Positions 20,407 through 64,000 of a stretch of 64,000 bases of DNA are shown in pieces. The DNA is from a virus, in IMG/VR virus record IMGVR_UViG_3300045988_139474, positions 32,001 through 96,000 of that record; one strand, written 5' to 3'. Position numbers and translations under genes: made by a program. Below the pieces are notes generated by a model. The model searched no databases, was not told the DNA's origin, and saw only the letters and a program-made list of their open reading frames with translations. Position 1 is the stretch's first letter. Each line of letters starts with the position of its first letter.

Positions 20407-20450
20407 GGTGTTTCCTTAAAAGTGCTATTCATAAGCTGATATTCCATCAG

Positions 20451-20466
20451 CCAATCTTAATTTTTA
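20451..20466 (-). promoter_or_regulatory. Class-2 intergenic motif
   Basis: Minus sense TAAAAATTAAGATTGGCTGATGGAATATCAGCTTATGAA, 45 nt upstream of start 20406. Overlaps the stop of the upstream gene. Confidence 0.5.
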
Positions 20467-20669
20467 ATTGACCACTTCTGCTCAAGAACTAAGGCGCACA
20501 GCCCAAGCATACGGTCGGTTGTCGTCTTGAGATAAACAAGTTTTCCGCTAGGATAAGCATACAAGTCACCTGTTTCTTGAATGCTTAACACTGTTGCTTG
20601 AATGCCGTATGAGTCAGACACTACTTGAGTGCCCTCTCGCAGTTCATCAATCCTTAGCATTGCCGTCAT
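20457..20669 (-). CDS. Hypothetical small protein
   Basis: Start uncertain. The track start 20711 lies inside the MazG-like gene, so it was trimmed to an internal ATG. No clear SD. Confidence 0.4.
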   Translation of the reverse strand: MTAMLRIDELREGTQVVSDSYGIQATVLSIQETGDLYAYPSGKLVYLKTTTDRMLGLCALVLEQKWSIKN

Positions 20670-21345: not shown

Positions 21346-22275
21346 CTATCGTTTATGCTTGATAAGTATTCGTTTGTAGATTTCTTTACCGCCAATCGTA
21401 ACAGCCATATCAATATCCTCCGCCCAACCTTTAGGACGGCCATGGTTGTTCGAACAGCCAATCACTTCAAATTGGTCGGGATTATGTTTGAGAAAGAATG
21501 TAATAGGTACACCCATCACGCCATCATAGTCATGCGGGATGTTAGCAACTTTAGATACCTCAATAGCATCATAGTTGTCGTACTTCGGATGAGTTTCAGG
21601 GCTGTAGGCTTGTTGAAGAACCAACTTCTCAGGCCGTTTAGCATGGTCTAGGTTAGTGAACCAACTAACATTGCCTAGACTTCGCCACTTTCGGCCTTCC
21701 TCATCTTGACGATAACGTGTTGCTTTCGGCTCGTAGTAATCAGGCACTAAGAACTCCATATCATTCTTATTCGCACCTGCCCACATCTTATTGTCTCGCA
21801 ACAATTGAAAGATTCCATTATATGCAAAGGCATTCTGGTTACCAATTATCAAGAACTTCTTGTTATATTCAACCAATTGCGCTACATATTCCCGAAACAG
21901 AGAAAATGGCGGATTGGTTACAACAATGTCCGCTTGTTTCAGCAACTCGACGCACTCATCGCTGCGAAAGTCTCCGTCACCTTTCAACGGCTCGATTACC
22001 GCATTGCCCTCACCCCAGTATTCCGCCCGAACACCGTGCTCAGAATTTTCAGTTTTGTAACCGCTCGCAATCAGCTTCTTCAAGCCCAGCTGTTTGAAGT
22101 TGTCGAAGAAGTAACGAAAGAAGTTGCTAGCATTCGGGTCATCGCAATTGCAGTAAACAACTTTGGCCTTGAAATGTTGTTTGTAATGCTGCAATTCCTT
22201 TTCAATATCCGACAGCTGAGTGTAAAATTCATCATTCTCGTTTACTTTGGCTGCGTTGAGGAATTTATTAGTCAT
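21346..22275 (-). CDS. N6-adenine DNA methyltransferase
   Basis: Motif IV VVTNPPFS. The N-terminal DEFYT and CNCDDP segments are typical of the EcoRI-like adenine methyltransferase family. Confidence 0.75.
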   Translation of the reverse strand: MTNKFLNAAKVNENDEFYTQLSDIEKELQHYKQHFKAKVVYCNCDDPNASNFFRYFFDNFKQLGLKKLIASGYKTENSEHGVRAEYWGEGNAVIEPLKGDGDFRSDECVELLKQADIVVTNPPFSLFREYVAQLVEYNKKFLIIGNQNAFAYNGIFQLLRDNKMWAGANKNDMEFLVPDYYEPKATRYRQDEEGRKWRSLGNVSWFTNLDHAKRPEKLVLQQAYSPETHPKYDNYDAIEVSKVANIPHDYDGVMGVPITFFLKHNPDQFEVIGCSNNHGRPKGWAEDIDMAVTIGGKEIYKRILIKHKR

Positions 22276-22335
22276 ACCAAATCCCTTGTGTGTTCATAGT
22301 GGCTTCCTTTCTTGTTTCCTGCGGTTGTTCCGCTT

Positions 22336-22376
22336 CTCACAATACACAAAGAACGAAAGGGCGCAAAAGCGCATTT
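22336..22376 (-). promoter_or_regulatory. Class-1 conserved promoter motif, copy b
   Basis: Minus sense AAATGCGCTTTTGCGCCCTTTCGTTCTTTGTGTATTGTGAG, upstream of the methyltransferase gene. Confidence 0.55.
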
Positions 22377-22468
22377 ATTTTAAAATATTTTCGATTTTTC
22401 TATAAGTCGTTGTTTTGCTTAAGAAGAAAGTTTATTCAGGCTTCAGTCTCTGCTCTTGACTGAACCCA

Positions 22469-22509
22469 CTCACAATACACAAAGCACCGTGAGATGAAAA
22501 AGCGCATTT
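22469..22509 (-). promoter_or_regulatory. Class-1 conserved promoter motif, copy c
   Basis: Minus sense AAATGCGCTTTTTCATCTCACGGTGCTTTGTGTATTGTGAG, in tandem 130 bp upstream of copy b. Its core is identical to copy d. Confidence 0.5.
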
Positions 22510-22601
22510 AGCGGAAAATATTTTTCGATTTTCTTGCAGCATTTTCGGAGCGGTCGGAGGGCTGGGTAGAGGGGACAGCATGCACTGCTAATTTGCAATA
22601 T

Positions 22602-22760
22602 GAATCTTGTAACGGTTGGGATTCCGTACATAAAGACAAGATTTTGACTAAAAATTTCCTTGCGAAAACAATCGACTATCCACGAAATATACGATTTCAA
22701 TGTCATAGATGTGATACACAATATACACACAAGTATTATATATCTAATAATTAATAAAAC
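22602..22760 (+). repeat. Promoter-bearing repeat module A
   Basis: GAATCTTGTAACGGTTGGGATTCCGTACATAAAGACAAGATTTTGACTAAAAATTTCC...CTATCCACGAAATATACGATTTCAATGTCATAGATGTGATACACAAT plus an A/T-rich tail. Reads on the plus strand. Confidence 0.8.
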
Positions 22761-23024
22761 AGACACTCACCCCAATATCCGTGAGACTGCTACAGCCATG
22801 AGAGTGAAATCAGTCATTCATCCTTCTGCTGAGTCTCTCTTCTTACAATCATGAGCCCAAGCAAGGATTCCTCCGACCGAAAACAAGCATACACTGAGAT
22901 TGAAACAAGGACTGTTCTGCTTGCGTTGTGATGATTGAGCAAGCTAGAACTGAAACCAGTCAAGCAGTCATGAATCTTGAGGCGTGAGCTACTGATTTGA
23001 AAACTGAAGCCTGTAGGGAACAGG

Positions 23025-23170
23025 AATCGGAACATAAATACAGGATTTTGGCTAAAAATTTCCCTGATTTATTAGAAACTTATCCACGAAATATACGATT
23101 TCAATGTCATAGATGTGATACAAATAGATAACACACAAGTATATATAGATTATAGAAAGAAAACAGACAC
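23025..23170 (+). repeat. Promoter-bearing repeat module B
   Basis: Same block as module A, with TTATCCACGAAATATACGATTTCAATGTCATAGATGTGATACAAAT. Extended -10 TGATACAAA at 23126-23134. Confidence 0.8.
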
Positions 23171-23310
23171 TGATATTCTTCTGCTGCACACTCACTCAAC
23201 TAAGGAATCAGACGGCCTAAAGACTGAAATCAATCATCATGAAAGATTCTTCTCAATCCTGCTGAAGCATGAAAACAGCCCTGCTGTGTTACCAGAGGGC
23301 TGATGTTTTC
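23141..23310 (+). ncRNA. Candidate ~170-nt non-coding transcript from module B
   Basis: Predicted start about 7 nt after the -10. It ends at the intrinsic terminator 23275-23310. The only ORF (23115-23303) starts inside the promoter and lacks an SD. Confidence 0.4.
23275..23310 (+). terminator. Plus-strand intrinsic terminator
   Basis: CAGCCCTgctgtgttaccagAGGGCTG followed by ATGTTTTCGG. It faces the 3' end of minus-strand gene 23445-23951. Confidence 0.6.
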
Positions 23311-23444
23311 GGCCTGATTAAAATTAAGCCAAAATTCCGCGAAAATTAGCTGGGTCGGGATTCTGCCCAAGTCGTTTACCATTCAAGGTCGCTAAAATCG
23401 AAACTAGACTGCTCTGCGCTTGAATACGGCTGTGAAGCTTAAAA

Positions 23445-23951
23445 TTAGCGACTTAAGAATTCTCTGCTGGAGGCCTGTTTGGCTTCGTCTAGCAACTTGT
23501 ACGCCAATTTTCGGCCTGCTGTACTAATGGCCAGCTTGACGGTCGGTGCGAGATTGGGTTCATATGCTCCGTCCATAGTCTTGATGTAGCAGATTCTGAA
23601 ATTCAACTGTTGATTAGCAGCTGTCTGTCTCAAGATACTTTCAAATGCTGGCGGGGTCATGATTTCATACACCGACAAGACGATTGACCGCAACAACTCT
23701 GCATTCGTCTCATCCAGCCGTACATTCAACAATTCCTGGGGCAACTGGATGTATCTGTCCAAGTCCAGCGGTCGGATACCGCAGGGGATGTTAATCAGAT
23801 TGCTTTCAGGCAACAGCTTGTTGTATTCCTCAATTGATGAAAACAGCTTGGCGGATAGCCTGTTCTGCCAATAGCGTGATGATTTCATGTAGTGCAGCTG
23901 CTCTTCTGAAAGCTCAGCCCATTGTTCCTTGACGGGTCTCAATAACGTCAT
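23445..23951 (-). CDS. Hypothetical protein (168 aa)
   Basis: 4-nt overlap coupling with the upstream gene. No motif recognised. Confidence 0.55.
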   Translation of the reverse strand: MTLLRPVKEQWAELSEEQLHYMKSSRYWQNRLSAKLFSSIEEYNKLLPESNLINIPCGIRPLDLDRYIQLPQELLNVRLDETNAELLRSIVLSVYEIMTPPAFESILRQTAANQQLNFRICYIKTMDGAYEPNLAPTVKLAISTAGRKLAYKLLDEAKQASSREFLSR

Positions 23952-24253
23952 GATTCCTCCCTCCCAAAATTGGGGTGACGCAATCTTCTTGGGACATTGT
24001 ATCTCGGAGCAAACTGAGGGTCACCAACAGCAACAGCCGTCCAGTATCCGTTGCGCTGAACTATCTGGTATTTGCAACCTAGCTCAACATCGCCAAATCG
24101 GCCAGCTAGAAACTCGAATAGCAACTGGTGAGCTTTAGTCATAGCTTGAGGTGTCGTAACGTTAGGAACAGCCGATATAGCCCGATAGCCGTCAAGTAGC
24201 TTGACTTCTGTATCGGGGTCTATCTCAACCGTCATAATCTCGTGAAACAGCAT
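23948..24253 (-). CDS. Hypothetical protein (101 aa)
   Basis: Start trimmed to ATG 24253 preceded by AAGGAG. The track start 24304 overlaps the small ORF below. Confidence 0.5.
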   Translation of the reverse strand: MLFHEIMTVEIDPDTEVKLLDGYRAISAVPNVTTPQAMTKAHQLLFEFLAGRFGDVELGCKYQIVQRNGYWTAVAVGDPQFAPRYNVPRRLRHPNFGREES

Positions 24254-24263
24254 GTACGACTCC

Positions 24264-24428
24264 TTACTGGCGGTTGTGTTGTTTCCATAGTGCAAACATA
24301 TCATCCCATGAACCTAATTCCATGAGCAATACGCTGAATTCAACTGGCTTACCGTCAATCAGGTACATGCCAGGACATGTTCTGTTCAGGTGTTCGTTGA
24401 ATTGGGTTGTTTGATTTGCGTTCATCAT
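24264..24428 (-). CDS. Small protein (54 aa), below the ORF-track size cutoff
   Basis: My translation gives MMNANQTTQFNEHLNRTCPGMYLIDGKPVEFSVLLMELGSWDDMFALWKQHNRQ. AGGAGG SD, and an ATGA overlap with the stop of 24425-24880. Confidence 0.5.
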   Translation of the reverse strand: MMNANQTTQFNEHLNRTCPGMYLIDGKPVEFSVLLMELGSWDDMFALWKQHNRQ

Positions 24429-26641: not shown

Positions 26642-26687
26642 AATTCATCACCTATCTGTCGGGTTGTAGGTTGTTATCTTTCAACAG

Positions 26688-26703
26688 CCAGTGGTAATTT
26701 TTA
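26688..26703 (-). promoter_or_regulatory. Class-2 intergenic motif
   Basis: Minus sense TAAAAATTACCACTGGCTGTTGAAAGATAACAACCTACAAC, 47 nt upstream of start 26641. Confidence 0.45.
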
Positions 26704-26979
26704 AATCAGTCGTTGTTGTCCTGCTTTCAAGTACCAAGTCAGTACTCCTGCAGACACGCAGAGGAAAGACTCAACGGCTCGTTGTTTTGAGAGTGTAGCG
26801 AAGTTAGCAGGGTCGCAGAACATGATTTCAGGCTCATCTGCCTCAGGGTATTTCAGCTTCACAAGAAACAAGTTATCCTCAAGTTCATGTTCAGAAAAGA
26901 CTTCAGTCATTTCAGGTAATGTTTGCTCAACCATCAATTGATGTTTGAAGCGTGGTAGCAGTGTATTGTTCATTCGCAT
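26701..26979 (-). CDS. Hypothetical protein (92 aa)
   Basis: ORF between two class-2 motifs. No motif recognised. Confidence 0.5.
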   Translation of the reverse strand: MRMNNTLLPRFKHQLMVEQTLPEMTEVFSEHELEDNLFLVKLKYPEADEPEIMFCDPANFATLSKQRAVESFLCVSAGVLTWYLKAGQQRLI

Positions 26980-27026
26980 GTTTGTTATTTCCTTGTCTGG
27001 TTATTCATGATTTATAGTCTCAGCAA

Positions 27027-27042
27027 CCAATTATAATTTTTA
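27027..27042 (-). promoter_or_regulatory. Class-2 intergenic motif
   Basis: Minus sense TAAAAATTATAATTGGTTGCTGAG, 48 nt upstream of start 26979, immediately after hairpin 27047-27062. Confidence 0.45.
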
Positions 27043-27198
27043 TCAGCCCTGTCAGCACAGGGTTCAGTCGGTCGGATAGCTGAGGATTGAGATTTCAGTT
27101 TCATGGCTGTTAGTCGATTAAGTGGTGATTGAGGTCTGATTGTGAGGGCTGAGGAATGATTGTTTTCCGTCTAGTTAATATAATATAGAACGTTGTAT
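27043..27198 (-). ncRNA. Candidate ~155-nt non-coding transcript from module C
   Basis: Runs from about 7 nt after the module C -10 (TACCAA, 27205-27210) to the CCCTGtgctgaCAGGG hairpin at 27047-27062. No ORF present. Confidence 0.35.
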
Positions 27199-27325
27199 TT
27201 GGGTTTGGTATCACATCTATGAGTTTGGAATTGGATATTTCGTTGATAACTCGTTGAAATAAAGCAGGAATTTTTAGCCAAAATCTTGGTTTTATGTACG
27301 GAATCCCAACTATTACAAGATTCAG
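27170..27325 (-). repeat. Promoter-bearing repeat module C (most diverged copy)
   Basis: Minus sense GAATCTTGTAATAGTTGGGATTCCGTACATAAAACCAAGATTTTGGCTAAAAATTCC...TTATCAACGAAATATCCAATTCCAAACTCATAGATGTGATACCAAAC. Confidence 0.7.
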
Positions 27326-27350
27326 TTTCCAATTCCTGCTATTGCGTTGC

Positions 27351-28640: not shown

Positions 28641-28673
28641 ATTGTCCCTCCTTGAGTCTTGATATCTGTTCAG

Positions 28674-28689
28674 CCAATTCTAATTTTTC
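28674..28689 (-). promoter_or_regulatory. Class-2 intergenic motif
   Basis: Minus sense GAAAAATTAGAATTGGCTGAACAGATATCAAG, 34 nt upstream of start 28640. Confidence 0.45.
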
Positions 28690-29044
28690 AGTCAGTTCAG
28701 TCTCAGGTTTCGTGTTAACATGACTGATTGAGAGCTCAGTCAGCAGAAGGATGTATGATTGTTTTCATCTCTAGGCTGACCAATCATCAGTCAGCCAGAC
28801 GGTCTAAGCTAGGGATTTTCGGCTCATGACTGTTAGTTTCCTTGTTCTTCTGATTCTAGCCTGCTACTCACACACGCAGGCAGAACAGTCTCATGTTTTT
28901 CATTCTCATGGTTTGAGATTCTGTTTTCAATTTCATGATTTCAGCCTCATGGCTTGAGATTCTGTTTTCAATTTCATGATTTCAGTCTCATGGCTGTTTG
29001 TTAGATTGAGGATTTCTATGCATGACTGTTCTCAAGTCTCAAAG

Positions 29045-31446: not shown

Positions 31447-33375
31447 TGCTTTCTTAGTGACTTCTAAGCCGTGTTTGTCCATGTAGGTGTTGAAGCTTTC
31501 GGGCAGGTGTAGTCGGAGGACATTTTCAGGCTTCTTCACGTATTCTTTCAGCCATTCGGTCGCTTCAGCTACTGTTTTCTCAAAGTCGAAGCCAATCAAT
31601 TCGTCACGCATCGCAGTATGGTTTAGGCCGTCTGAATAGCAAGTCAGCATGAATTTGCTTCGCAGCAGAATGCTAAGATTGCCACGGATATGCCAAACAT
31701 CAATAGGCAGCTCAGGGACTAACTTCAGTAGCAGGTCTCCTGCATAGAAGCCTTTTGATTTTACAAACTCACGGTACTCGTTTGCATAAGGCTTCAAGTC
31801 AATATCCCGCAGATGTTTACCACCAATCTTAATCAGGGCTTCATGCATAGTCTTAGGGAATTCAATTTGAGTGAATCCCAAGTCTTTCAGCACTCTAGCT
31901 TTATCCCAGTCATATCTCGACATCTGCTTAGTTTCAGACGGCGCAAAGAAGAAAAAGCGTTTTGTGTCTCGGATGTACTCTGACCTGTTATTGCCGCAGT
32001 AGATTCGATTATTACGAATTTCAGCCACATAATCGGGCTTCGTCTCAGGCTTTAGTAAGGAACGGAACGCGCGCAATTCTTTCACGGCCTCGTCTTGCAG
32101 GACAACTTTCATCTCTGCAAAATCCTTCAACTCATTCCAATCTTCAGAAGTGCCCATGAGCAAGGTATCGTTTGCCCATACCGCACGAAAGCGTTTGAGG
32201 TCAGTCGATTTGGTGATTTTCTCGTTCAAGATGAAGATAGTGTCGCAGCCGTTTGCAACCTTACGCACCCATCTTTTTACAGTCATCTGGTTCACCTTTT
32301 CTTGAGATGAGTCGGTACAGATTTTCACGTTAGGCACTTGCATGCCTCCGCCCACGATTTCGGGTACATTGTAGATGCTCAACTCAAGTACAGAAGCAGC
32401 AGCTTCAATCGGCTTCTTGCCTTGAGATAGTCTTTCAATTTCTTCTGCAATAGCCTTATCAACGCGCGTCAGATACTCTTTCAGACGGCTTTGAGTAGTA
32501 GCATCTTCAGAGATTTCCTCACGGCCTGCGGTCAGGTCTAATTGACCGATAGGTACAAGGATGTTTATGCGGGCATTGATTCGTTTCAGATACTTGAATT
32601 CATCAAAAGCAGCCCATTTCAAAGGATACTCAACACCGCCGATGATAATGTAAATGCTATTGTGACTACCGTGATGGGACAGCGCATAGCCTTTGTCTTT
32701 CATTTCAGCGATAAGCTCGGAATTATCCTTAGCAAGCTCAAATTCTTCTTTCATTGAAATGCCGTTGTTCTCGACAATATGACGGAATTTGATAGGGCAT
32801 TCTGCAAACGGAACAGCATTCTTGCGGTTATCAAATTTCAAGACATCGTCAGCCTTAACAGGCACGGATACTTTCACACCATTCGGTTTGTCGGTCTTGT
32901 TTTTAGCCACAATAGTCAGAGTAGGAACACCATTCTCACCGATTGCGCAGATACCGATTACCTCAACGCCGTCTTTACGGCTCGTGATTGTAAATGCGTC
33001 AGTATAGCTGAATGGGCTTTTTGAGCCTAAGCCATAACCGCCAATCAATTCGTTGCTCTGGGTCTTGTTGCTTGAGAAGTAGGAAGTGTAAACCTCAAAC
33101 AATTCTGTTTCGGAAAGGCCTGTACCAAAATCTTCCACTTCAAAGTTCAAATAGTGTCGGGTCGGAATCGTAACAATGATAGGCTCTTTAGTGCCTGCTA
33201 CTTTATGTGAATCGACAGCATTGCTAATCAATTCGCGGATGATTGATGCGATTTTGTCCTTGTATAAGTTTGAGGACAGGATTTTGAAAGCCTTTGCGCT
33301 AGTAGCAATTGTAAATTCACCTACTTTGCCTGCAACAGTGTTGCTCTTCATTTGGTTAGTTTGAACTGGAATCAT
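31438..33375 (-). CDS. rIIA: rIIA-like protein with N-terminal GHKL ATPase domain
   Basis: [39 protein letters not shown] and [34 protein letters not shown] parallel T4 rIIA ([64 protein letters not shown], from memory). Confidence 0.85.
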   Translation of the reverse strand: [645 protein letters not shown]

Positions 33376-41211: not shown

Positions 41212-41248
41212 TATATTACAAAGCACCGTGAGATGAAAAAGCGCATTT
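41212..41248 (-). promoter_or_regulatory. Class-1 conserved promoter motif, copy d
   Basis: Minus sense AAATGCGCTTTTTCATCTCACGGTGCTTTGTAATATACG, upstream of RNR beta. Confidence 0.55.
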
Positions 41249-41273
41249 AACGCTAAAAATTTTTAAGCTTGGG

Positions 41274-55780: not shown

Positions 55781-55820
55781 TCATAATACACAAAGAACGA
55801 AGAAACCGAAAAGCGCATAT
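55781..55820 (-). promoter_or_regulatory. Class-1 conserved promoter motif, copy f
   Basis: Minus sense ATATGCGCTTTTCGGTTTCTTCGTTCTTTGTGTATTATGA, about 70 nt upstream of the HU start. Confidence 0.55.
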
Positions 55821-55870
55821 TTCGGAAAATATTTTTAATTTTCGGCTAATTCTTTGTTTTATATCAAAAC

Positions 55871-62250: not shown

Positions 62251-62290
62251 TCACAATACACAAAGAACGGTAGGATGTAAAAGCGCATTT
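62251..62290 (-). promoter_or_regulatory. Class-1 conserved promoter motif, copy g
   Basis: Minus sense AAATGCGCTTTTACATCCTACCGTTCTTTGTGTATTGTGA, about 165 nt upstream of start 62080. Confidence 0.55.
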
Positions 62291-62368
62291 TCTTTAAAAT
62301 AATTTCGACTTTTTCGATAACTCGTTGTTTTTACTAAGAAGAAAGTTTAAAATATTTTCGATTTTCTT

Positions 62369-62394: not shown

Positions 62395-62799
62395 TTGAGG
62401 GAAATTTCAAGCTTCAATCTTCAGGCCTCAAGCTTTCGGCTCGATTCCTCTTGTGATTGAGGGTTATACAGGCTCAAGCCTCGCTCAGGCAGAAGTTTCA
62501 TGTTTCAACAGGTTTGAGGAGGATTCATGACTGATTCCTTCTTATATTTCCACTCTTGCTTGACCACATAGCAGAGCCTTTCATGTTTCAAGTCTCATGT
62601 TTGATTGAGGTAGCAGGGTAATGAATGATTGTTTCATCTCTAGCCTGCTACACCACACAAGCAGGCAGACGGTTTAAGCTAGGATTTCACTCAACATCAG
62701 GGTTGAGAATTGAAGATTTCAGCCTCATGGCTTGAGATTTAGGATTCATGATTGTTGAGGGATTGAGAGGGTTTATGATTCATGTTTCAACACTCAATA

Positions 62800-62955: not shown

Positions 62956-63344
62956 ATTCAGCTTCTGTATCCCTGTCAACAGATTTCACCAGTGTTGATT
63001 GATTTCGCCTTTTAGCTTTCTATCCTCTGCTTGACACTCACCCAGACGGTCGGATTTCAGTCAGTCATTACTCATGCTTCAGCAGGGTTGAGTAGGATTC
63101 ATGATTGTTACCCCTTCTTCTGCTGACTCAGGCTACAGGCCGTCTAGTTTCATTGCTTCAGCAGTGTTGATAAAGACTGATTCTGTTCCATCTCTAGCTT
63201 GCTACGCTCACACGCAAGCAGAGGGTTTCTTATCTCATGTTTCAGCATCATGATTCTCAAATTTCACGATTTCATTCTCATGGCTGATTGAGGATTGAGA
63301 GTGAATGACTGATTCCTGTTCAACAGCAGATATTAAGTCGGTAT

Positions 63345-63733: not shown

Positions 63734-64000
63734 ATGACCAATCAGGTAATAAGTCTAAATTCCAGTTCATTGCCAGCTACCTTGTCTGATATCGACAAGC
63801 ATTTTGATATCGACCAGCTTCAGGTACACCGTATTGCAGCACAGCTGTTGTTGACTAAATTAGCCAACAGGGAAGCTGTACGGCTCGAAAAGCTCGTCAA
63901 TTTCAGAGATGCTATTGAAGAGCAGCTATTTGATGAAGACCGCATCGACAAGTTGACTCAGGAAGAGTTGATTGCTTTGCACCAGTTGATATCAAGTAGT
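63734..64000 (+). CDS. Hypothetical protein, 5' part (first plus-strand gene, runs off window end)
   Basis: ATG 63734 preceded by AGGAAG. My translation gives MTNQVISLNSSSLPATLSDIDKHFDIDQLQVHRIAAQLLLTKLANREAVRLEKLVNFRDAIEEQLFDEDRIDKLTQEELIALHQLISSS, with no stop before the window end. Confidence 0.5.
   Translation, partial: MTNQVISLNSSSLPATLSDIDKHFDIDQLQVHRIAAQLLLTKLANREAVRLEKLVNFRDAIEEQLFDEDRIDKLTQEELIALHQLISSS

Follow-up and report, generated by a model that had tools for sequence, protein, structure and literature searches.

What is transcribed, if anything, from a segment in which a promoter-like element and a stable hairpin follow each other with no gene in between? The question is raised by positions 22982-23310 (plus strand) of a 64,000-nucleotide (nt) stretch of viral DNA, i.e. 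positions 32,001 to 96,000 of the IMG/VR record IMGVR_UViG_3300045988_139474 (hereafter the window). A preliminary description had taken the segment for a self-contained transcript of ~170 nt and for one of the cleanest small RNA (sRNA) candidates in the window. We interpret it, with a probability of roughly 55%, as the last and shortened copy of a repeated cassette composed of an early promoter and a leader (class I). The copy would stand in an array that points against every neighbouring gene and ends at a two-way terminator, and it would have no sequence-specific RNA role.

The promoter-like part of the segment (module B) belongs to a repeat family. A 24-nt core within module B was present in seven copies in the window, compared to 0.00 expected from shuffles. 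These copies are located at 22694 and 23098 on the plus strand and at 27231, 29108, 29486, 62860, and 63416 on the minus strand, and each is embedded in a module of ~180 nt. Relatives were gathered by pattern scans (two related IMG/VR contigs and 22 metagenome loci). In the window and 30 related loci, 69 class-I modules were counted; 61 distinct modules were aligned (alignment A1). A typical array comprises 2-5 modules at a spacing of 323-560 nt, with no gene led by a Shine-Dalgarno (SD) sequence between the modules, and 240-800 nt separate the last module from the first gene. Only in two loci (L006 and L028) was a module found ~65-70 nt upstream of an SD-led gene. A motif scan of viral contigs returned multiple matches in this clade only, the others being single and at chance level. 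Likewise, a scan of genome contigs for the host or for mimicry, with a pattern of 17 specified bases, gave 62 single matches in unrelated taxa, which is about the chance estimate.

In A1, the modules show a fixed order of three parts: (i) ~110 near-invariant columns (ACATAA, GATTTTG, AAAAAT, TTA, CGAAAT, TCATAGATGTGATA); (ii) a variable A/C-rich stretch of 15-19 nt; and (iii) a block of the TATTATATA type. The invariant part terminates in TGTGATACAAT in 40 of the 61 modules, corresponding to an extended -10 element (TRTGnTACAAT). In eight modules, including that of the segment under study, TACAAT is replaced by TACAAA. No -35 match was seen at 16-18 bp from TRTGnTACAAT, and an alternative promoter made of GTGATA (-35) and TATTAT (-10) fits just 29 of the 61 modules. 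The upstream region contains phased A-tracts and a conserved inverted repeat (AATCTTGT/ACAAGATT). A role of this repeat as RNA stem or terminator was rejected, since no covariation was found in the module alignment and the predicted folds were weak (-6 to -15 kcal/mol) and inconsistent. As the repeat is thus not a terminator of the kind found in promoter-early stem-loop (PeSL) cassettes, tandem units are probably read through. We also noted two variants of the module core in A1 (...ATAYACGATTTCAATGTCATAG... and ...ATAGCCAATTCCAAACTCATAG...), which differ in the downstream AT-rich blocks and in the starts of the leaders. The copy at 27231 (module C) is of the second type, as opposed to the other six window copies. 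Possibly, the variants represent two promoter subclasses.

Modules and their leaders were co-oriented in every case. Since modules lie at promoter distance from SD-led genes in L006 and L028, and module C precedes a conserved gene, the module seems to behave as a promoter. The copy at 22982-23310 (hereafter unit B) is probably transcribed, given that the same module is found at promoter distance from genes elsewhere. Generic promoter and terminator scans remained at chance level for this region, so the case rests on repetition and conservation and not on consensus matching. Further support comes from the distribution of TATA-rich -10-like hexamers, which are avoided outside the arrays: TATATA was absent from the ~60 kb outside the four arrays of the window (8.7-28 occurrences expected, depending on the null model) and occurred 12 times inside them, while ATATAT was at expectation and TACAAT was not avoided outside the arrays. 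Several contigs of relatives start or end exactly within a class-I module (L001 and L007, from IMGVR_UViG_3300045988_131213; L024, from ODNI01000015.1; and L011). Class-I repeats thus break metagenome assemblies, and public contigs may understate the size of the arrays.

Two modules on the plus strand form the array to which unit B belongs (22578-23310). The first cassette starts with module A (22578-22760; repeats D3, D7, and I2-I9; core at 22694-22717; a row in A1), and its leader carries the motif ACAGCCATGAGAGTGAAATC (22792-22811; inverted-repeat partners I16 and I22). Module B (22982-23149) consists of an upstream region with A-tracts and inverted repeat, an invariant 42-nt block (23081-23122, identical in four copies), an extended -10-like element, and an AT-rich block. 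The invariant block TTATCCACGAAATATACGATTTCAATGTCATAGATGTGATACAA ends at 23123, the extended -10-like element TGTGATACAAA occupies 23114-23124, matching the family consensus with the exception described above, and the AT-rich block at 23140-23147 reads TATATATA. An extended -10 had been recognized earlier and agrees with the family consensus, but its position had been given as 23126-23134, whereas TGATACAAA is located 10 nt to the left (23116-23124). Either the extended -10 or the TATATA block is predicted to be the real -10, which would place the start near 23131 or 23152 and yield an RNA of ~150-180 nt. The earlier size estimate of ~170 nt therefore holds.

Downstream of module B, the body of the proposed RNA corresponds to a truncated leader (23150-23275). 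It includes a degenerate copy of the leader motif (GGCCTAAAGACTGAAATC, 23214-23231; inverted repeat I18), in which ATG is changed to TAA, and lacks hairpin H, an element of other leaders described below. Next to the terminal hairpin, it contains a 28-nt repeat (CTTCTCAATCCTGCTGAAGCATGAAAAC, 23247-23274). RNA folding had been proposed as a check of the sRNA candidate; folded as RNA, 23150-23312 was no better than shuffles outside the terminator (z = -0.32), and the centroid fold showed only the terminal hairpin with a closing helix of A- and U-tract and a 4-bp stem. The sole open reading frame (ORF) on the plus strand (23115-23303, 62 aa, GTG start) begins in the core, as had been described. 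It was rejected as a gene, because it is interrupted by stops in its one ortholog (L015). Blastn of 22300-23450 against cultured phages gave no match. The description of a gene-less unit with a repeated promoter-like module, a stable hairpin followed by a short U-run, and no conserved ORF stood up to analysis, while its self-contained nature did not.

Comparison with relatives pointed to the origin of the shortened unit. The locus is orthologous in five of them (L010, L015, L018, L019, and L024). In all five, the plus-oriented array ends at CATGAAAACAGCCCTGCTGTGTTACCAGAGGGCTG, and the reversed orientation of the array with respect to its neighbours (22578-23310 in the window) is kept. Rightward of ~23250, the relatives are 89-96% identical, like the adjacent gene. 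Leftward of this position the content varies, with two modules in the window and in L010, four in L015, and different leaders. For the body of unit B (23150-23275), only a single ortholog was detected among the 30 related loci (L015 3206-3306, 96% identity), and this ortholog runs into a further module, not into the hairpin. BLAST segments of the window and L015 overlapped: window 22593-23274 corresponded to L015 2626-3306 and window 23247-24400 to L015 3728-4894. Thus, the 28 nt at 23247-23274 align both to L015 3279-3306 and to L015 3728-3755. Two L015 sites 421 nt apart for one repeat in the window are what a deletion between copies of CTTCTCAAYCCTGCTGAAGCATGAA would leave, and unit B looks like the product of such an event, with the likely crossover in the 28-nt repeat. 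From core to hairpin, the terminal unit spans 311-339 nt in the five relatives, where it holds the motif and one or two copies of H, compared to 174 nt in the window, where it holds neither.

The array ends at a hairpin with terminator-type features on both strands (23270-23310), with GAAAA to its left and TTTTC to its right. The inverted repeat CAGCCCT/AGGGCTG (23276-23282 and 23296-23302) is followed by ATGTTTTCGG; the stem extends by 3 bp past a one-base bulge and encloses a 6-nt loop. Folding energies were -17.7 kcal/mol for the plus strand (z = -3.3) and -19.2 kcal/mol for the minus strand (z = -4.5). The terminal hairpin of the preliminary description was thus retained as a stable inverted repeat, with its exact span corrected to 23276-23302; a simple terminator scan called it on neither strand. 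Among six orthologs, the stem is invariant and substitutions are confined to the loop. The minus-strand stem is directly followed by UUUU, and all six orthologs retain UUUUCAUG, which is the make-up of an intrinsic terminator. On the plus strand, the 3 nt AUG separate the stem from UUUU, and the tract reads AUGUUUUC in three orthologs and AUAUUUC in the other three. With an invariant U-tract on the minus strand and an eroded one on the plus strand in three of six orthologs, the minus-strand function appears better conserved. The hairpin is probably a bidirectional terminator shared by the array and the convergent operon; the sequence alone fixes no single strand.

Between the hairpin and the stop codon of the convergent gene at 23445-23951 lies a conserved block (23303-23444, minus strand; 89-96% identity in the five relatives), representing a 3′ untranslated region (UTR) or possibly a small ORF. 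The block folded with z = -2.3 and displayed no covariation. In a possible small ORF on the minus strand (23230-23382; MVN[D/G]LG[R/K]IPTQLIFAEFWL...), the first 25 codons are retained in all six orthologs, where several synonymous changes were seen. No SD precedes this ORF, and a 1-nt indel near the hairpin makes its length differ among orthologs (29-50 aa). The block also includes an 11-nt tandem repeat (AAAATTAAGCC, 2.6 copies) at 23320-23348, to the right of the hairpin.

Taken together, we propose that a host RNA polymerase of the sigma-70 type starts at module B, either from the extended -10 (23114-23124) or from the TATATA block (23140-23147), and that the A-tract-rich, near-invariant upstream DNA assists initiation. 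The product would be a non-coding RNA of 150-180 nt. Polymerase from module A, 404 nt upstream, would read through unit B, and transcripts from both modules would stop, at least partly, at the bidirectional terminator (23276-23302), where the convergent minus-strand operon would end as well. The body of unit B would be a deletion remnant of a normal leader. As it lacks both motif and H, any role of this copy would lie in the act of transcription and not in a specific RNA sequence, be it the firing of the promoter or convergent transcription at an operon boundary.

Several points weigh against this interpretation. Promoter activity, polymerase type, timing, start site, termination, and function were all derived from sequence. 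The extended -10 of unit B (TACAAA) lacks the critical final T, and the alternative -10 (TATATA) is 19 nt away from the -35-like GTGATA, which is a long spacer. Furthermore, the reversed gene-less array has been retained, with 2 to 4 copies, across relatives that are 80-97% identical. This suggests usefulness, and to call it a remnant may be an understatement. Leaders of L005 and L021 also contain the inner hairpin sequence CCCTGCTGTGTTACCAG in sense, without the full stem. The hairpin may therefore derive from cassette material and could serve as the terminator of the array itself. Finally, the signs of purifying selection on module and H could also result from gene conversion among copies. 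Given that five relatives keep the reversed array, the array as a whole may have a role. As candidates we rank effects of transcription at the operon boundary first, leader-type RNAs acting in trans second, and a tolerated by-product of recombination last.

A total of 46 distinct leaders (14.3 kb) were evaluated. Their first 40 nt contain only 12% G. The motif ACAGCCATGAGNNTGRAATC was found in 39 leaders at a median position of 48 nt, and hairpin H in ~32-33, ~60 nt beyond the motif. In H, TCTGCYTGC and GCRRGC[T/A]AGA enclose a 10-14-nt loop that contains TGTGA or TGATG. The motif was located upstream of H in all 31 leaders having both (distance 24-132 nt), so that the leader RNA reads as a G-poor 5′ segment, ACAGCCAUGAGNNUGRAAUC, and a covarying H with a loop of the UGUGA type. 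The words of the leaders are strand-specific: CATGAG occurred 13 times in promoter sense and never in antisense in the four non-coding arrays of the window, and across the 46 leaders the corresponding numbers were 38 and 0 for AGCCATGAG and 55 and 3 for TGAAATC.

One pair of the H stem alternates between C-G and U-A, and two more swap among G-C, A-U, and C-G. In an alignment of H (A3), 98.8% of cells were paired, and two-sided changes were seen in 29 cells, compared to 8.9 in shuffles (reached by 0 of 500), but A3 had been selected for pairing and the fair test is a search blind to the three variable pairs. With these pairs left free, 35 of 38 instances were fully paired. By this pattern of changes, H appears to be a selected structure. 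A covariance model of H (R1) gave six matches in the window, all co-oriented with the modules: (i) 22908-22958 on the plus strand, within leader A (TCTGCTTGC-loop-GCAAGCTAGA; 58.7 bits, E = 8 × 10−15), and on the minus strand (ii) 28760-28807, (iii) 28845-28892, (iv) 62544-62583 (weak), (v) 62629-62677, and (vi) 63183-63230. A covariance search had also been suggested for the sRNA candidates; R1 detected H in neither unit B nor its proposed counterpart on the other strand (unit C, see below). With Rfam 15, searched at gathering and E-value thresholds, a tRNA was the only match in the window to reach its gathering score, and there were only weak, chance-level matches in region 22250-23500 and one chance-level match in the other arrays.

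Unit C (26980-27338, minus strand) had been regarded as an analogous small transcript. It comprises module C (27183-27338), a leader (26980-27182) in which the motif is present and H is absent, and a hairpin (27047-27062) of -10 kcal/mol that is followed by CUGAUAAAAAU and not by a U-tract. The ATG of a 92-aa gene (26701-26979; SD AAGGAAA) lies 68 nt past this hairpin. The ORF has 91-97% aa identity in L015, L016, L018, and L025, each time ~220 nt after a module. By its position, unit C is the 5′ UTR of this conserved gene, and the proposed analogy was abandoned. Of three words said to be shared by the two units, CTCAATCCT and AACAGCC are common to both, while unit C carries AACTGAAATC in place of GACTGAAATC; all three recur in the leaders of the family and are not special to these units.

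Further properties of the leaders were considered. Pairing of the H loop with its own leader was rejected, as the longest complementary run averaged 4.76 nt with the own leader, compared to 4.51 nt for other leaders and 3.86 nt for a reversed-loop control. Leaders were also rejected as coding sequences: ORFs beginning at the ATG of the motif span 5-60 codons (median 13) and share no conserved peptide, and a recurring mini-ORF (MNPxQxC, 7-8 codons) was found in only ~6 of 46 leaders. In the minus-sense array D, a 41-nt tandem repeat (28898-28995, 2.4 copies, 92% identity) is made of leader words (CATGAGRCTGAAATCATGAAATTGAAAACAGAATCTCAAG).

The conserved motif and the covarying hairpin leave room for an alternative which we hold to be possible, though distinctly less probable than the first. 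The class-I cassettes may encode undescribed non-coding leader RNAs of phages that act at the RNA level, either as a polymerase-modifying signal similar to nut or put, or as a decoy in multiple copies that captures an RNA-binding factor or a nuclease of the host. The reversed array would then be a dedicated locus for non-coding RNA, in which the complete terminal unit forms a stand-alone RNA of ~300 nt in the five relatives, and the 170-nt unit of the window would be a truncated allele.

A second alternative, which we consider unlikely, takes the direction of the array as its function. The array would fire into the end of an early minus-strand operon, and collisions at the shared terminator or read-through antisense RNA across 23303-23951 would either shield the following operon from early read-through or attenuate the end of the early one. 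This fits the position of the array, which is bordered directly by the terminator of operon 26979-23445 on one side and by the class-II elements of the following operon on the other, as well as its conservation in five relatives and the two-way geometry of the terminator. In addition, the cassettes at 62-63.6 kb point the same way as a class-II element and a gene, which indicates that orientation is specific to the locus and not random. On the other hand, this argument is purely positional, the hairpin alone may suffice as an insulator, and the intact motif and H in leaders of the reversed array would be left unexplained.

Less likely again is a trans-acting sRNA, i.e. a discrete RNA of ~170 nt with its own promoter and terminator that pairs with host or phage mRNAs or is bound by a chaperone. 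Unit B does have the anatomy of an sRNA, with a promoter-like module, a stable 3′ hairpin with UUUU, and no ORF. Moreover, gene-less intergenic sRNA candidates of phage LUZ7 share one start site (PMC9163698), and the five relatives have a complete gene-less terminal unit of ~330 nt at the same position. However, it is this difference in the terminal unit, together with a body that has a single ortholog among 30 loci (in L015, where it is not terminal), that speaks against the clean sRNA of the preliminary description. The missing structure outside the terminator, the loss of both conserved leader elements, the eroded plus-strand U-tract in three of six orthologs, and the absence of an Rfam match point in the same direction. 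The specific sRNA of 170 nt is thus an ordinary-to-doubtful candidate. The case calls for caution, as a promoter and a hairpin without an ORF resemble an sRNA gene, but the relatives reveal a shuffled and truncated copy of a regulatory cassette.

The least probable alternative, a DNA-level protein-binding or structural element (for replication origin or priming, a recombination hot spot, or a packaging repeat) with a non-existent or incidental transcript, would account for ~110 near-invariant bp, far beyond the needs of a sigma-70 promoter, for the phased A-tracts with a conserved but non-covarying inverted repeat, for the assembly breaks at modules, and for the differing copy numbers among relatives, but it is at odds with the constant co-orientation of modules and leaders, the promoter distance to SD-led genes in L006, L028, and at module C, the strand specificity of the leader words, and the lack of a GC-skew inflection at 22-23 kb.

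As had been noted before, unit B faces the minus-strand ORF 23445-23951, which encodes 168 aa and is the last large gene of the operon starting at module C. This gene had no PHROG or Pfam match and no further orthologs were found in viral contigs; PHROG and Pfam matches of the neighbouring genes indicated no function linkable to the RNA. All ORFs of at least 100 aa that are complete within the window and not contained in a longer opposite-strand ORF are on the minus strand, so the plus-strand modules at 22.6-23.1 kb are the sole plus-oriented signals within a long leftward block. Window ORFs matched to families include rIIA/rIIB, DNA polymerase, topoisomerase II subunits, ribonucleotide reductase, and an SbcCD-like nuclease. 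For the DNA polymerase, the best match among cultured phages was that of Ralstonia phage RP13 (34.5% identity). A plus-strand ORF opens at 63734 and extends past the window end (63734-64000), so that the control region around the class-I array of 62.8-63.5 kb is divergent and heads the long leftward gene block.

The left boundary of the reversed array is formed by two copies of a second promoter-like repeat (class II; 22336-22401 and 22469-22534, minus strand, direct repeat D5), located just upstream of gene 21346-22275. We read this pair (22336-22534) as the start of the next operon. Homologous copies were found at 62251-62349 and 55781-55860, and a class-II element is also listed at 41218-41263. 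On the plus strand, class II reads CTCACAATACACAAAG...AAAAGCGCATTT...AAAATATTTTCGATTTT; it may constitute another temporal class of promoters. Several minus-strand start codons are preceded, at a distance of 40-60 nt, by a third motif, TGAnAAAAATTAnnATTGGCTG (20448-20469, 27024-27045, and 28671-28692, minus strand, i.e. three matches vs. 0.04 expected; also 26681-26703), and words resembling it occur on the plus strand directly after the terminator hairpin (23314-23356). Across the whole window, short palindromes are strongly avoided (GATC, 9 vs. 243 expected; CCGG, 5 vs. 157 expected), and hexamers containing GGNCC, as well as AGCGCT, are absent outside the arrays. This looks like avoidance of restriction sites and may hold a hint to the host.

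Three described systems are relevant for comparison. The lambda nut site (boxA/boxB) and the HK022 put site are promoter-proximal leader elements for processive antitermination. The class-I family resembles them in the fixed order, at short distance, of an early-type promoter, a linear motif, and a hairpin with conserved loop and covarying stem. It differs from them in lacking sequence similarity to boxA/boxB and an identified N-like protein, in its variable spacing (24-132 nt), and in its several tandem copies. Unit B itself, having no H and a degenerate motif, falls outside the pattern of a lambda-type nut site.

In phage LUZ7, bidirectional terminators were validated in both orientations and worked better toward the more expressed gene (PMC9163698). 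Like the hairpin described here, they are G+C-rich, flanked by A-tract and U-tract, and placed between facing units. In contrast, one of the facing units is gene-less here, 3 nt separate the stem from the plus-strand U-tract, which is unconserved, and the terminator is predicted from its sequence. Also in LUZ7, sRNA1-3 are short intergenic non-coding transcripts with shared start sites and alternative terminators, seen late in infection (PMC9163698). Similarly, nested transcripts from modules A and B would end at one hairpin, but the LUZ7 sRNAs were observed experimentally, whereas the RNA of unit B is a prediction and its body is unconserved.

The closest described system are the PeSL cassettes of T4-type phages, which combine a sigma-70-like early promoter with a stable G/C-rich stem-loop terminator and end in the SD and start codon of the flanked ORFan (Arbiol et al. 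2010, PMC2839356; Comeau et al. 2014, PMC4122927). Unlike PeSLs, class-I modules have a weak, non-covarying upstream repeat in place of the stem-loop terminator, are followed by a gene within 70 nt in L006 and L028 only, and lead into a non-coding leader of 150-700 nt with its own motif and hairpin. Moreover, whole class-I arrays are devoid of ORFs, and the phage is distantly related to cultured phages. The resemblance is functional, in that repeated early-promoter cassettes drive shuffling. Both are repeated intergenic cassettes with a sigma-70-like early promoter (predicted in the present case) and an AT-rich upstream region, both are conserved over ~100 bp or more and cluster in plastic regions, and both serve as recombination points for insertions, deletions, and swaps between close relatives, as seen here in the 2-4 units at one locus and in the deletion junction within a 28-nt repeat. 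The class-I family would thus extend mobile promoter cassettes of the PeSL type to a distant clade of uncultured phages. To these it adds tandem gene-less arrays of promoters and leaders, and, with H, which shows clear compensatory changes and a fixed place after the promoter, a candidate RNA for the control of early transcription or a candidate decoy RNA.

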